Shown here one piece after another: positions 39,627 through 64,000 of a stretch of DNA of 64,000 nucleotides. Origin of the DNA: a virus. The notes below the pieces were generated by a model. That model did not search any database. It worked only from the letters and a program-made list of their open reading frames with translations, and was not told where the DNA came from. The stretch lies in the IMG/VR virus record IMGVR_UViG_3300045988_174813. One strand, given 5' to 3'. Both the position numbers and the translations under genes were made by a program. Positions within the stretch are counted from its first letter, which is position 1; each line of letters opens with the position of its first letter.

Positions 39627-40919
39627 ATGTCGGACACAAAACAAAAACGCAATCCAGCGAAGTATGTTCCGCCCTACACTCTGGATTTCTCGCTAAACGA
39701 TGCAACCGCACGTTAGAAACTTGTAGATAATGTGCTGAGCGCAATGGAACGCTCTGGACGCAAGCCCAACCAAAAAGACCTAGACTTACTATCTAACTAT
39801 ATTTTGTGCGGAGAAGATCCCGATGGCTACAACCCAGTACGCTCCAAAGACATAGAACTTGTCGGCTACTCCACTCCCGCACGGCCAAAAGAGTAGTCCC
39901 TGGAAGCCCTAGTGGAAAGTCCCACTTTTTCGGAGTCTCTCTTTCGCCAAGGCCCAACACGTTACACCATCCCAAAACCCAATCTGGAGCGCGCATCCTT
40001 CGATCCATCCCTAAGTGTTGCGCCTGTCCCCCAAAACGATGGGGCCCGCGCTACACAATCAAACCAACAATCCGATTCTTCTCCTGCCTTGGAGTGTATG
40101 AGAGCTCTTTGGAAGCGTATTGACCGCCTAGATGATGCACTTACTAACCAAGGTCTAACCTCCCAACAAACCTACCACCTACGCAAACTTCTCCTCGAAC
40201 TTCGTCGAGAACAATACACCATTGGCGACTTCATAAAACCCCAAATACAACTCCATTCAGTTGTGTAGGATAAATATCGAGGGGGAGAAGAAACCCAAGG
40301 ACTTCTTTGGGATACGGACGCATTTCCCATACTTCCTATGGGCCTGTATAATGCGCGTCATCCTTAGACTAAATTCTCTAAACCATATACTATAAACTTA
40401 CCTGATGAGCCTTTGCGCGAGCCAAAGAACAATTGCTTCTTGGACTTCCGTAATTGGAAGCACATTTACTGGATGAATGAGTTTAGAGAAGATTTGGAAG
40501 ATTGGAGTGTGGGTGATGCGGAAAGCGCGATCCCCGCCTTATACGCCACGTTGGACTTTTACACTAATCTTGCCCATTTGCGCCCCGCGCAAAAACTTAT
40601 ATTCCAACTAAAATCCCAAAATTACACCAACGAGTTCATTTGTAGGGTACTACACGAAAAGTTGGGGGTAGACTACAGTGAACCCTACATTTCCACTATA
40701 TATACCAAGCAAATTTGTAAAGGAATAGCCAATGCCGCGCAACTCCATTGGGATACTTTTTGCGCGCGTAAGAACCCCAAAAGCTTCAAACAGTGTAAGG
40801 ATTGTGGAGCAGTGCTACTTATGGATGGGCGCAATTTTGCCCAGTCTTCCCGTAATGCGGGGGGATGGAATTGCAGGTGTAAGTGGTGTGAGAGATAGAA
40901 ACGTAAGGCCCAGTAGTAA
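39627..40919 (+). CDS. HTH (sigma region-4-like) plus C-terminal zinc-ribbon protein, 6 TAG sense codons
   Basis: Single frame joins track ORFs 39912 and 40413. LRPAQKLIFQLKSQNYTNEFICRVLHEKLGVDYSEPYISTIYTKQI is HTH-like. CKDCG..CRCKWC. Confidence 0.5.
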
Positions 40920-41085
40920 TTGGGCATTTTATACAATAATCTATATAAAAGATGGATAAATTTTTGGACTGCGCGCACAGACAATTGCGTAGTCTTGGAG
41001 GAACACATTGCGTTATAGTAAGATAAAGAAATAGATTGGAGTTGAAGTAAGCTCCGAAGAACTACTTCACTTTGTGGAGTAGAGT

Positions 41086-41586
41086 ATGAAGTTGAATCCT
41101 GTAGAGTTTATGGGACTTTTGAAGATTATGTGTGTTGATGGCTGGGTGAGAGGATGTCCTAGGGTGGGGGGTAGTTTATTGGGAAACTAGGAAAATGAAG
41201 TGCCTAGTAGTTCCCCTCTTGAGCCTGCTACGCAGGCTCAAGAGGCAGAAGAAATTGGATTTACTTCCGAATCGCAGGTGCGCGAGCCCATGAATTTGTA
41301 GAATGGAGAGATATCCATTGAGGAAAATGATGCTACCCGCGCCCTCAAAATAGATAGTGTAAGTGAGACATCCAATTGTGAGTCTAATTTAGATTGCGCG
41401 GGCTCCATAAAAATGGAGCATGAAACCAAACTAAAATCTAAATCTCACCGAACTACGCGGCCTCTTGAGGAAATGTTATCTGAGGTAATTGATACATACC
41501 TCACCCTTGGACGAAAACAACGTCAAGAAATAGCGGTTCTCTTATATTAGATAACCGAAGAAAAGGAAAAGAAAACTTAGAAATAA
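41086..41586 (+). CDS. hypothetical protein (166 aa), 4 TAG sense codons
   Basis: Frame open from ATG 41086 to TAA 41584-86, interrupted only by TAG. Confidence 0.4.
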
Positions 41587-41597
41587 GGAGGCTAGAT

Positions 41598-60924: not shown

Positions 60925-60943
60925 ACACAAGGGAGGAAATAAA

Positions 60944-62017
60944 ATGAGAAATATTTACTAGAAAGACGACTATACAGGCTTTGTATATAATGGCATACAT
61001 TCCTCTCAATTTGGCCTGTTTAGCGTCGCTAATGGGGACAGATACTCACGAGGTCTGTCCCCGACCTTTCAAGACCTGACACAATCTGTGCCAGGTCAGG
61101 ATGGAACACACTACTTTGGAACACAAATGACGCAACGAGTTATTACATTATAGGTTGCTTTTGATAGTGTAACGGAGACAGAGTTTCATTAGTTAAAGCG
61201 CTGGTTGAATTGTGGCATCAAGCCACTCATTCTTGACGAGACGCCTTATATTCAATACTATGCAAAAATTCAAACCGCGCCAACCATATAGTTCGTGCCT
61301 TTTGAAGAAGATGTAGATGAACGGATATATAAGGGAGAAAGTACAATTACTTTTGTATGTTATGACCCATATGGATATTCTGTTTCTAAATGGCTAAGTT
61401 CTTATGGCGTATATGGTGAAACTGGACTCTAGCCAGTGAGTTTATATAGTGAAAATGTGCGTGAATGGGCATTAGCAAGTAGATTACAACCGCGCCAGTC
61501 TACAAAGCAATATACTATTGATACTTATCAAGAAGATAATGAGCTTAGTGCGAATGCATATAACGGGCTAATTACAATATATAATGCAGGAGATTTACCT
61601 GTAGATTATATATTGAATTTTACATTGTCTGATGCGGTAACTACTAGTCAAGAAATCAAAATCACACTGACTCATAACGACGTGACCATTGTTGAAAATG
61701 CTATTGACTTTTCAGTTGCTTCAAATTTACTCAAAAAGGCAATGAAGAATGTTGATACTAATGCCATAATGGTAGGCATCAATTTTTCACTAGACACAAA
61801 GAAAAGATTACTTTTTGCCTCGCGCATATATACAGTTACAACCAATGGTGAAGTAGAATAGAAAGTTTCAGATAGAGTTATTGCGAACCATGCTTTGCGC
61901 GGAGACTTTTCAAAAATCCCGCTTTCAGAAAATAAAGATGATATGTCTTATATGTAGTTGAGTTGTGACAAGCCTATTAGCAAAGTAAGTATTGATTATC
62001 TATATAAATACTACTAA
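60944..62017 (+). CDS. distal tail protein (Dit-like), 7 TAG
   Basis: GGGAGG RBS; N-terminal FVYNGIHSSQFGLFS..VPGQDGTHYFG pattern of siphophage tail family proteins; follows the TMP. Confidence 0.55.
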
Positions 62018-62028
62018 GGAGGTGCCAA

Positions 62029-64000
62029 ATGGCATATACATATTATATACAAACTGGCATACAAACATATGATAGCACTACTGGCACCTGGGTTATCATT
62101 GATGGAGAAAAAATTACTGCATCTACAACTAAATCAATATTATATTATAGCCTTGATGAAGATACAAATGAGATTTTAGGTAATGTTACAAATATTACAA
62201 CTGAGTAGGCGAAAAGTAACCGAGTACCTAGAGTGCGGTATAACATAAATGTTGATAAAGTGCTTGGAAAGCTTACTGAAGCAGAACCTTATTTGACAGT
62301 TTATGTTGATTATCTTCAACAATTCATTATAGATTACTATTATAAAAATGAGGAAGGCGCGCTAGTAAAAGACCAAGAATCTGGCATAAAGTATGTTGAC
62401 TAGGGATATACAATTCGAAATACTTCGCGCCTAAAGGAAGAAACTTACTCTATATATACCAACATGAATGGAACCCAAACATTCCAAAAGAAATACTACT
62501 ATCGCCCGATTGCAAAATGGATCTCGCAAACTGAAGATGATAGTACTATTTACAATGCTGGTGACCTTTATAATGGTAATGCCAATTTATCACTTGTGCT
62601 TGATAATACAAGTTCTTATGTATTGCAAGGAAATTATATTGATGACATTCCGAATCCCAGTCGTGAACCGGATAAAGTTGCAAATGCAATTCTGGTAAAA
62701 CTTTATCCCCAAGGTGGCGACTTAAGTTCAACGAGTGATTTAAAGTATATTGATGGCTATAAATCTTATCACTTTTTAGGATGGACAGACACACTAGGTG
62801 GTATAGTTTTACCTGATGGATATTAGTTAGGTAAACTACCCAATGATGGAGATAGTCTTATTTTATATCCAGTTTGGCAAGAAAGTCCATGCTAGAGGGC
62901 CTTACTCTCGGCGCAAAGTGATTTATCAAAGCCATCTGCTCCGACTCGCGCGGGCTATCGCTTTTAGATATGGTCCGCGCGCTCACAAGAAGAAAACTTG
63001 CCAATACTTCAAGACAATACAACAGGAGTAGAAAATCCAGAGCCAATTCCTATCTTTGCTCTATGGCAGAGCGAACTAGAGTATGCCAATGAATATGAGC
63101 AGACTATTCGTAAAGTACCCTATAAAATTGAAATATGGGAAGACCAATTCAATGAAGAAAACAATAGATGGGAAGAAATACGTTTGGTAACTCTTGGCGC
63201 GGACACCATGGAGGATTAGGGACGCGCCTTCAATATCAAGTTCAAATAGACCGTATATGGTGAGTTGACGCTTACTTTCTCCCTCTATGGAACATATATT
63301 GATAATCAAACAGGTCAGCGCGTAGAAAACTATCTTATGCCATATTGCTTCAATGAAGCCAAAGTAAAACTTTGGTATGATGGAGAGTGGTATGATTTTA
63401 TTATAAAAGATATTCAAGAAACTCATAATCAATAGTTTACTAAAACATACACTTGCTAGTATTTACCTATTTATGAACTAAGTAAGATTGGATATACTCA
63501 AGTATTTAGCTTAGATAACCGTGATGGGAGCGGTATTCAAAGCGCGCCTGAATTTATGGAAAGTATTCTTGAAGATACTGAATGGCGTTATGTGTAGGCA
63601 GGAAGTGATAAAGTTCCTACTGTGGCAGACTTGGAAGTAAATCTAACTGAAACAAGTGAAGAAGTAGTTTATTCTACTGATGTAAAAGACGTAGAAAATG
63701 GACGTATCAATTATGAAACCTACTCTATTGATGAAAATGGTATTTTACATCCTGGCATCAGTGGTACTATATCTAGTGGTAAGGTGTATATTCCATATAG
63801 TTAGCTAAATAAAGAAGGAAAGATTTTTGGTTGCTTTTCTGAGGGTCTTATTGAAGTTGATGGTGACCTAATTCTACAGCAAAGTTTGGTTACTTTCACA
63901 ATGGACTGGGCACTATATCCTCTAACAGATTTTACTATTACAAAATTCACTGCGGAAGTCCCTAAAAAGAGTAATGTTAGTGAGTGGATTGAAGCATCTA
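62029..64000 (+). CDS. tail-associated (Tal-like) protein with N-terminal Flg_new-type repeats, partial at window end, 11 TAG
   Basis: AAGGAGG RBS. HFLGWTD..LILYPVWQ and GYRF(TAG)IW repeats, then a prophage-tail-endopeptidase-like block (KIEIWEDQF..YDFIIKDIQE). Confidence 0.5.

Follow-up and report, generated by a model that had tools for sequence, protein, structure and literature searches.

IMG/VR virus record IMGVR_UViG_3300045988_174813, a 64,000-nucleotide stretch of DNA analysed here at its full length (hereafter the window), very probably belongs to an SPbeta-related siphophage of the gut that has a genome of at least 122.6 kb and uses genetic code 15, in which the TAG codon specifies glutamine, in a host that presumably keeps the standard code. 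A suppressor tRNA encoded by the phage would gate the expression of the genes that contain TAG. The use of TAG as a sense codon for glutamine is well supported by sequence comparisons. The sequence features by which code 15 is recognised, i.e., restoration of open reading frames (ORFs), alignment of TAG with glutamine, a tRNA(CUA), absence of TAG terminators and a bias of TAG towards structural or late genes, were found. The terms “early” and “late” denote gene classes proposed from promoters, gene size and function.

TAG as a sense codon

The earlier note on this DNA had held that every break in the gene train on the + strand from 39.6 kb onward is an in-frame TAG. ORF tests run by codon and the curated genes bear this out, as the frame is broken by TAG every time and by TAA or TGA never. 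The longest ORF of the window spans 1,071 nt under the standard code and 7,062 nt when TAG is read as sense, versus 1,275 nt when TGA and 1,884 nt when TAA is so read. In the comparison of codes 15 and 11 that the earlier note had proposed, the late region (39,627-64,000, + strand) resolves under code 15 into 19 curated back-to-back genes (98.1% coding, 456 non-coding bases) and breaks up under code 11 into 66 fragments with a median length of 64 aa and a density of 69%.

The late genes carry 128 in-frame TAGs in 7,959 codons. These are distributed over 15 of the 19 genes, the number of genes given in the earlier count, which had missed two of the codons (126). The 7 TAGs of the GIY-YIG homing endonuclease gene and the 11 TAGs of ORF 9705-11405 were recounted identically, and the total amounts to 146 codons in 17 genes. 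TAG makes up 30% of the glutamine codons of the late genes. Most TAG-containing genes reach their first TAG within the initial 25% of their length, and translation without suppression would therefore yield stubs only. The base following TAG is A in 41%, G in 26%, T in 18% and C in 14% of cases, and the base following CAA or CAG is A in 36%, G in 32%, T in 18% and C in 14%; judged by the following base, the two contexts do not clearly differ. The statement that TAG is a sense codon in late genes has to be narrowed, since four of them (47303, the major capsid gene at 47870, 49478 and the tail tube gene at 52103) have no TAG.

All curated genes end with TAA or TGA, and no clear TAG terminator was found in about 94 genes, in agreement with the earlier claim that no gene terminates with TAG. 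Outside the late train, five TAG-terminated ORFs of at least 30 aa are preceded by any ribosome-binding site (RBS). Four of them overlap other features, and the sole candidate left (23937-24050, 37 aa) ends ambiguously in a TAG-TGA tandem. The lack of TAG stops is not a property of the whole group, since 29-53% of genes end in TAG in more distant relatives (L012, L013 and L016).

The first two genes of the train carry a TAG close to the C-terminus. Gene 39627-40919 ends in TAG-TAA and gene 41008-41586 in TAG-AAA-TAA, and their C-termini change by just 1-2 residues with or without suppression.

Read under code 11, and only then, the window has the raw appearance of a dead prophage in decay or of an assembly chimera of recoded and standard-code DNA. 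The probability of either is negligible. Only TAG, never TAA or TGA, interrupts genes across 24 kb, full-length homologs are conserved, and at least five independent contigs, obtained from different samples, share the two-arm architecture. Both readings are refuted as far as sequence analysis allows. A 122,617-bp metagenome contig in ENA (L060; ena:ERZ27229728:k119_309751) was compared with the window over 21 kb and proved 99.99% identical, and the gene caller of the public protein database predicts the same long genes on it, with TAG already treated as sense. ENA ERZ27229728 and ERZ10544652 are examples of samples that contain this phage. Any annotation of the contig under code 11 breaks up the virion genes, a problem that the public protein database avoids.

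Amino acid specified by TAG

Alignment of the terminase large subunit (TerL) with 119 homologs, in which the glutamine background is 3.9%, revealed that the TAG at residue 128 faces glutamine in 119 of 119 sequences. The TAG at residue 18 faces glutamine in 96 of 119, and glutamine holds the plurality at residue 236. The closest TerL homologs were themselves called with TAG as glutamine, and their genes fail to give the query protein under table 11; the independent evidence therefore comes from the distant homologs. In ORF 9705-11405, glutamine is invariant at residue 321 in the 13 closest homologs and at residue 11 in the 10 closest.

All TAG-containing proteins were also compared by tblastn with 55 related loci, in which the glutamine background is 3.2%. 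Glutamine is the residue found most often opposite TAG (180 of about 990 cells), followed by glutamate (116), lysine (98), asparagine (72) and aspartate (71). A further 61 cells are stops, which correspond to TAG in other recoded relatives. According to the earlier note, TAG positions falling at true C-termini or gaps of homologs would speak against recoding. When tabulated against homologs, TAG positions are aligned with residues, and tails or gaps are not the rule (21 gaps, about 2% of cells).

A further comparison, made codon by codon, involves L002, a relative with 90% nucleotide identity. The 43 window TAGs that could be aligned correspond to 32 TAG, 6 CAA, 3 CAG and 2 other codons. Conversely, 13 codons are TAG only in L002, and the window has 7 CAA, 4 CAG and 2 other codons in their place. 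Swaps with CAA or CAG thus account for 20 of the 24 differences. GAG, AAG, TAT and TAC, which are one-step neighbours of TAG, never replace it.

Decoding of TAG as another residue, e.g., glutamate (if the tRNA were mischarged because the host has no glutaminyl-tRNA synthetase), lysine or pyrrolysine, is highly improbable. Glutamate and lysine rank second and third opposite TAG in distant homologs, glutamate outnumbers glutamine (47 versus 36) in distant homologs of ORF 9705, and ARAGORN labels the tRNA “Pyl”, as it does any CUA tRNA. However, glutamate, lysine, asparagine and aspartate are the usual replacements of surface glutamine, and TAG occupies a TerL position at which glutamine is invariant. 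Among the 24 differences between close relatives, GAA occurs twice, and GAG, AAG, TAT and TAC, each one mutation away from TAG, do not occur at all. Moreover, the acceptor end of the tRNA(CUA) matches that of the phage tRNA-Gln and not that of tRNA-Glu.

Suppressor tRNA and shared promoter box

The suppressor tRNA that the earlier note had placed in the same window is a tRNA(CUA) recognised by ARAGORN and, above threshold, by Rfam (RF00005, 33.8 bits, threshold 29). Of the 15 tRNAs that ARAGORN reports in the window, 13 are solid. Only the tRNA(CUA) and the phage tRNA-Gln(UUG) combine A1-U72 with G2-C71 and G73; tRNA-Glu has G1 and U73. Bacterial tRNA-Gln normally features U1-A72. The occurrence of A1-U72 in its place, in both the tRNA-Gln and the suppressor, puts in question the route by which a Bacillota host would charge them. 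Among the IMG/VR tRNAs that share the anticodon arm of the tRNA(CUA), the nearest has 84% identity to it in ungapped register, and its acceptor end, read by eye, is that of a canonical tRNA-Gln (U1-A72, G2-C71, G3-C70 and G73).

Exact copies of the 18-nt anticodon arm (AGGAGGCTCTAACCCTCT) that the suppressor tRNA carries are found in 103 IMG/VR stretches; the arm is thus common to suppressor tRNAs of many otherwise different gut phages. Among the matches listed, most contigs with this arm have lengths of about 50-105 kb, and a small number reach about 175 kb.

The promoter of the suppressor tRNA includes a conserved box. This box (TATAATAWATATAGAAA) occurs in 10 copies on the + strand, versus 0.16 expected by chance, and alignment of the upstream regions gives the consensus TTGAyT-N17-TATAAT-AWATATAGAAAgtgagg. 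Boxed promoters precede seven TAG-free genes at 11.4-22.6 kb, another such gene at 6.6 kb, tRNA-Leu(UAA) and the suppressor tRNA. The relative L063 shows the same arrangement, with the suppressor tRNA and, upstream of it, the box.

A theta or hepatitis delta virus (HDV)-like ribozyme beside the suppressor tRNA, within 5 nt of its 3' end, was considered and rejected, since the tRNA encodes its CCA end and no HDV-like match was found near the tRNAs at E up to 1 in positions 1-9,700 with the models of Rfam 15, whether or not these include a theta-specific one.

Distribution of TAG among genes

Two blocks of small genes, one on each strand, comprise 66 genes and 6,660 codons with no in-frame TAG. 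Off-frame TAGs number 122 in the + block and 46 in the minus block (168 in total), so the trinucleotide is not simply rare there. At the TAG share seen in late genes, the probability of finding no TAG among the 132 glutamine codons of the small genes is 1.7e-21. The earlier note had counted roughly 70 TAG-free genes at 11.4-25.6 and 27-39 kb. The absence of TAG holds for the 66 genes found, and the account is to be corrected in that the genes at 27-39 kb are carried by the minus strand, as indicated by negative GC skew and by the RBSs and promoters on that strand. About 11 weak TAG-containing ORFs in the early blocks are probably not genes; they are short, and 8 of the 11 have no RBS-like motif and 3 a 4-nt motif only.

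In the minus-strand block, about 20 sites between 28.9 and 36.9 kb match TTGACA-17-TATAAT at 10 or more of 12 positions, five of them perfectly, and intrinsic terminators are present. Because their promoters resemble those read by host sigma-A, both small-gene blocks and the suppressor tRNA are classed as early. The late train features one strong host-type promoter (TTGAAA-18-TGgTATAAT, 39532-39561).

The partition recurs in three independent recoded relatives. Minus-strand genes and late train carry 0 and 44 TAGs, respectively, in L002, 0 and 85 in L006 (TerL identity 75%), and 2 and 83 in L007 (63%). In each of these relatives, 0-2 TAGs are found in the genes for the capsid, scaffold-like and main tube proteins. 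L008 (58%) has the same architecture, including the divergent small-gene arm, and no in-frame TAG. Several more distant loci show TAG opposite window TAGs, which indicates that recoding is scattered through this gut clade.

TAG belongs to a wider codon regime. ATA makes up 0.31 of isoleucine codons in TAG-containing late genes, 0.14 in early genes and 0.03 in TAG-free late genes. The corresponding shares are 0.25, 0.10 and 0.09 for TTA among leucine codons, 0.31, 0.20 and 0.06 for CCA among proline codons, and 0.55, 0.41 and 0.29 for CAA among glutamine codons. The GC content of third codon positions (GC3) is 0.31, 0.42 and 0.42 in the three groups. ATA, TTA, GTA, CCA and CAA, codons read by phage tRNAs, are all enriched in TAG-containing genes, so TAG is one of a set of codons dependent on phage tRNAs. 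Host-like codons are retained in the capsid, scaffold-like and tail tube genes, whose products are, to judge from their roles, the most abundant virion proteins.

Recoding as a putative timer

Recoding may function as a timer. After DNA entry, host RNA polymerase would read the TAG-free genes and the tRNA array. Host enzymes would charge the suppressor tRNA with glutamine, and the tRNA, as it builds up, would beat release factor 1 (RF1) at UAG. The TAG genes, which include those for terminase, portal, tape measure and tail proteins and the first gene of the late train, would then be fully translated. Without suppression, most of them would yield N-terminal stubs only.

Several points weigh against this interpretation. 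Timing is deduced from promoter type only. The suppressor tRNA lies behind an early-type promoter, so that any delay must stem from its accumulation and from competition with RF1, and the gate is a soft one and no hard switch. No release factor or aminoacyl-tRNA synthetase was found in the window, where the TAG-free ORFs of at least 250 aa were scanned (methyltransferase-like, PhoH, ORF 12189-12962, NlpC/P60, ORF 29042-29899, capsid and tube). The secreted NlpC/P60 hydrolase is TAG-free, a misfit to a simple rule of recoded lysis functions. L063 spans 10 kb upstream of the left end of the window, and its nucleotide-metabolism genes there are mostly TAG-free but three of them carry one TAG each. 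The partition is therefore graded across the genome, and the earlier description of early genes as strictly TAG-free is accurate for both small-gene blocks of the window but not for this flanking module. Finally, the bin labels of metagenome-assembled genomes (MAGs) that hold related contigs contradict one another.

A possible, if doubtful, alternative accepts the decoding and regards the TAG partition as arising incidentally from gene flux and from two codon regimes, not as a timing device. Genes that need host tRNAs would keep host-like codons and no TAG, TAG would have been captured neutrally after its loss as a stop, and the small-gene blocks would be swapped with standard-code phages so fast that TAG never accumulates there. 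The enrichment of all phage-tRNA codons and the lower GC3 of TAG genes, the early-like codon usage of the capsid, scaffold and tube genes and the early-type promoter of the suppressor tRNA are in line with this. So is the comparison with L002, with which the minus-strand block aligns only in patches and the late train end to end. TAG stops provide a further argument, as they are absent from the nearest standard-code relatives L008, L009 and L015 (TerL identity 56-58%; 0/56 genes in a joint count, and 0/31 in L008 and 0/34 in L009 and L015 in separate counts) and frequent in the distant ones cited above. Gene flux and codon regime fit less well with the sharpness of the partition (0 TAGs in 6,660 codons versus 128 in 7,959), with its recurrence down to 63% TerL identity and with the 6 TAGs of the first late gene, which has its own host-type promoter. 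The timer and this alternative are not mutually exclusive. The standard-code relatives without TAG stops, which have no in-frame TAG either, may represent a TAG-less intermediate state before reassignment, which fits the idea of stop loss preceding reassignment published by Borges et al. (bioRxiv 10.1101/2021.08.26.457843).

It is very unlikely that the host itself reads TAG as glutamine, with no code conflict and no switch. That the genome bins gave no host call favours this reading, but a CUA tRNA of the phage and 66 TAG-free promoter-proximal genes would be needless in such a host. No bacterium is known to use code 15. Published recoded prophages sit in standard-code genomes (Borges et al.).

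The timer may extend further, although we consider this rather improbable. If the first late gene encodes a late regulator, the code switch would lie upstream of the transcription switch and form a translation-gated feed-forward timer, as the full-length regulator would appear only after the early build-up of suppressor tRNA. The tRNA array would split the proteome in parallel, dividing genes served by host tRNAs, namely the early ones and those for capsid, scaffold and tube, from phage-tRNA-dependent ones.

Affinity of the phage

The GC content of the window is 39.9%. Precomputed Pfam matches on L060 (YonG_N, YonD_N, YonB, YomW, YomU_Tube and PhageMin_Tail) correspond to the SPbeta structural module, and the Yon/Yom-type head and tail proteins occur in the conserved order of that module. 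The matches to YonG_N, YonD_N, YonB, YomW and YomU_Tube come from L060 and are not reported by the local Pfam scan of the window. No YonO-type RNA polymerase gene is found in the 64-kb window, which covers part of the 122.6-kb contig.

In tblastn searches of GenBank phages, the best TerL match is Geobacillus virus E3 (41.6% identity), followed by phages of Alicyclobacillus, Enterococcus, Bacillus, Brevibacillus, Lactococcus and Clostridium. At the nucleotide level, megablast against GenBank phage records gave zero matches for the window. The Firmicutes-style promoter and RBS background described in the earlier note is apparent in AGGAGG ribosome-binding sites, TTGACA-17-TATAAT promoters and CCA-encoding tRNAs, to which TerL kin in Geobacillus, Bacillus, Enterococcus and Clostridium phages can be added.

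Calling the host from genome bins was tried and rejected. The best TerL matches (55-58%) fall in MAGs labelled Muribaculaceae, Methanobrevibacter, Bacteroidales and Alphaproteobacteria, almost certainly phage contigs put in the wrong bin; more distant TerL matches are mostly from Bacillota. Searches of IMG/VR and of the JGI metagenomes with an exact 30-mer from the window end returned no match.

Comparison with known recoded phages

Both the phenomenon and the model are already published. Borges et al. attribute code 15 to the gut phage clades Lak, crAss-like, Garnet, Amethyst, Sapphire, Agate and Topaz, and their model comprises code-neutral early genes, translated under the standard code before a code switch, and recoded late genes. 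The layout of the window matches this model, as the earlier note had suggested. Features in common with those phages are TAG specifying glutamine, a phage tRNA(CUA), concentration of TAG in structural genes, the presence of some genes that the standard code can also read, avoidance of TAG as a terminator, and, in standard-code relatives, depletion of the stop codon that is reassigned later. Agate (about 127-154 kb) is the clade closest in size. Unlike the phages described there, the window shows no release factor 2, synthetase or lysis genes. Conversely, the promoter box shared by the suppressor tRNA and TAG-free genes, and the TAG-free capsid, scaffold and tube genes, are undescribed in the parts of the preprint considered here.

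A published precedent is the SPbeta-like phAss-1 group, which is monophyletic. phAss-1 (GenBank OQ749652; proposed Phassvirus) is a siphophage of the human gut; it measures about 136 kb, its predicted host belongs to the Clostridia, and recoding is scattered in its group (Babkin et al. 2023, PMC10607447). It resembles the window in its very long tape measure, in its many tRNAs including tRNA-Sup(CTA), in the lack of a phage synthetase (PMC10607447) and in reading TAG as glutamine in the genes for TerL, portal, tape measure and tail proteins; the TerL proteins of the two are detectably homologous. phAss-1 has three suppressor tRNAs, the window one. TerL identity of 32.5% and the absence of any nucleotide match place the window phage outside Phassvirus, in a different lineage, and the 80-86% nucleotide similarity and shared synteny found within that genus were not observed. 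NCBI taxonomy holds a “Caudoviricetes code 15 clade”.

In crAss-like phages, proteomics validated TAG as glutamine, which is the only direct protein evidence in phages (Peters et al. 2022, PMC9523058). These share the reassignment but have an unrelated structural module and Bacteroidota hosts, and none is among the listed TerL matches, which are phages of Bacillota hosts. SPbeta-like siphophages (SPbeta, Geobacillus virus E3, Enterococcus phage H1 and Bacillus phages PBC2 and FADO) have the structural module in common with the window (TerL identity 30-42%) but, unlike it, are annotated without recoding. Theta (HDV-like) ribozymes are attached to phage suppressor tRNAs, and only 4.5% of theta-associated tRNAs encode CCA (Kienbeck et al. 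2024, PMC10879173). The window likewise has a suppressor tRNA in a recoded gut phage, but one that encodes CCA and has no HDV-like match.

The window thus provides a well-resolved case of TAG-to-glutamine reassignment in a gut SPbeta-like lineage distinct from the phAss-1 group. It sharpens the published model in that one promoter box serves the suppressor tRNA and TAG-free genes, no TAG occurs in the capsid, scaffold-like or tail tube gene, dependence on the whole set of phage tRNAs goes along with the use of TAG, and the nearest standard-code relatives already lack TAG stops.

Gene content and other elements

The features of the window are listed in Table 1.

Table 1 Features of the window, ordered by position; single numbers in the remarks are gene starts.
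Feature	Position	Strand	TAG codons	Remarks
tRNA array with interspersed GIY-YIG homing endonuclease gene, methyltransferase-like gene and PhoH	0.6-8.2 kb			
tRNA array	697-8148	+		includes Leu-UAA, Ile-UAU, Val-UAC, Pro-UGG, Thr-UGU, Gln-UUG (6404-6478)
GIY-YIG homing endonuclease	868-1503	+	7	Pfam PF01541, E 4.5e-10; PHROG homing endonuclease, E 8e-30
Suppressor tRNA promoter	2550-2589	+		TTGACT, 17-nt spacer, TATAAT, then conserved box AAATATAGAAA
Suppressor tRNA(CUA)	2598-2673	+		CCA encoded; A1-U72, G2-C71, G3-C70, G73; ARAGORN, Rfam
566-aa ORF	9705-11405	+	11	full-length homologs spanning 97-100% of query
Block of 38 small genes	11463-25623	+	0	ends TAA or TGA; seven conserved promoter box copies
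Metallophosphatase	17204-17737	+		in TAG-free block
NlpC/P60 + SH3 cell-wall hydrolase	18209-18988	+	0	secreted; N-terminal hydrophobic segment; in TAG-free block
AT-rich non-coding DNA	25.6-27.1 kb and 27.6-28.0 kb			carries repeat arrays
Block of 28 small genes	27072-39041	minus	0	mostly single-gene units
DnaD-like replication initiator	27072-27557	minus		PHROG
Late-train control region	39450-39561	+		perfect 14-nt tandem repeat CAAACCTAAAATTC, 5.9 copies; ends in TTGAAA-18-TGgTATAAT promoter
Virion gene train	39,627 to window end	+		uninterrupted
First late gene	39627-40919	+	6	430 aa; last TAG directly 5' of TAA
Late gene	41008-41586	+	6	
YonG-like	41598-42569	+	6	Pfam YonG_N on L060
TerL	42566-44362	+	6	598 aa; PHROG, tblastn
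Portal protein	44375-45895	+	4	
YonD-like protein	45895-47286	+	2	
Scaffold-like gene	47303-47848	+	0	glutamine codon preference CAG
YonB-type major capsid gene	47870-48919	+	0	glutamine codon preference CAG
Six head-/tail-completion genes	48994-52076	+	1, 0, 2, 1, 2, 6	48994, 49478, 49911, 50180, 50881 (YomW-like), 51363
YomU-type tail tube gene	52103-52906	+	0	
Tail tube paralog	53036-53818	+	3	
Tape measure protein	53866-60924	+	65	2,352 aa; TAG is 40% of its glutamine codons; Pfam PhageMin_Tail on L060
Distal tail protein Dit	60944-62017	+	7	
Large tail protein	from 62029	+	11	cut by window end

ORF 9705-11405 gave no family match in profile scans, including NCBIfam. The C-terminal part of the first late gene product is predicted to form a helical bundle followed by short strands (AlphaFold2, mean pLDDT 62.7), and the invariant Cys391, Cys394, Cys419 and Cys422 lie on these predicted strands in a zinc-ribbon-like manner. 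The protein matches PHROG 5767, labelled “sigma factor” (E 3.8e-11), and its other matches are uncharacterised viral proteins and entries with Stc1 and PhnA zinc-ribbon labels. A PDB profile search returned a weak match to the LuxR-type helix-turn-helix of DesR (E 0.2). Assignment as a sigma factor was rejected, because the PHROG label stands by itself; nothing indicative of a sigma factor came from Pfam, NCBIfam, the PDB profile search, BFVD or AlphaFold2 followed by Foldseek against PDB, where no fold match was obtained, and neither folds nor profiles of sigma-70 region 2 or region 4 were found in the protein. The product is possibly DNA-binding and zinc-ribbon-like.

Upstream of this gene, the CAAACCTAAAATTC array (39450-39532) runs into the -35 element of the late promoter. 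L060 has about three fewer copies of the repeat, which reflects either real copy-number variation or collapse in short-read assembly. A second repeat, GCCCTT in 4.7 copies, is found at 39348-39375.

The TAG-free + block includes two paralogous small membrane proteins (15731-16243 and 19753-20223), both of which contain the motif DFFRYFRKID...LTF.QFLAFYNVSS and are encoded behind a copy of the conserved promoter box. Two iteron-like arrays (26170-26630 and 27670-27990), composed of TTATAAATGTAAT units of about 13 nt and 22-nt AAAATTTACATAAGGATGTAGG units in AT-rich non-coding DNA, flank the DnaD-like gene on the minus strand. By sequence, the arrays and this gene look like a replication origin.

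In the tRNA region, two sub-threshold matches to YrlA (RF02553, threshold 69 bits) are located at 4801-4914 (39.7 bits, E 4.5e-6) and 4979-5087 (33.2 bits, E 3.4e-4). The first overlaps an ARAGORN “tRNA with anticodon tata” at 4779-4855. In L063, the gene for a DUF2828/DUF7788 protein precedes the equivalent tRNA-like element by about 15 kb. Another tRNA-like element, at 8649-8730 (RF00005, 44.5 bits), lacks a CCA end and is conserved in L063 (20063-20144); its anticodon loop is enlarged, and ARAGORN gives the anticodon as “cc”.

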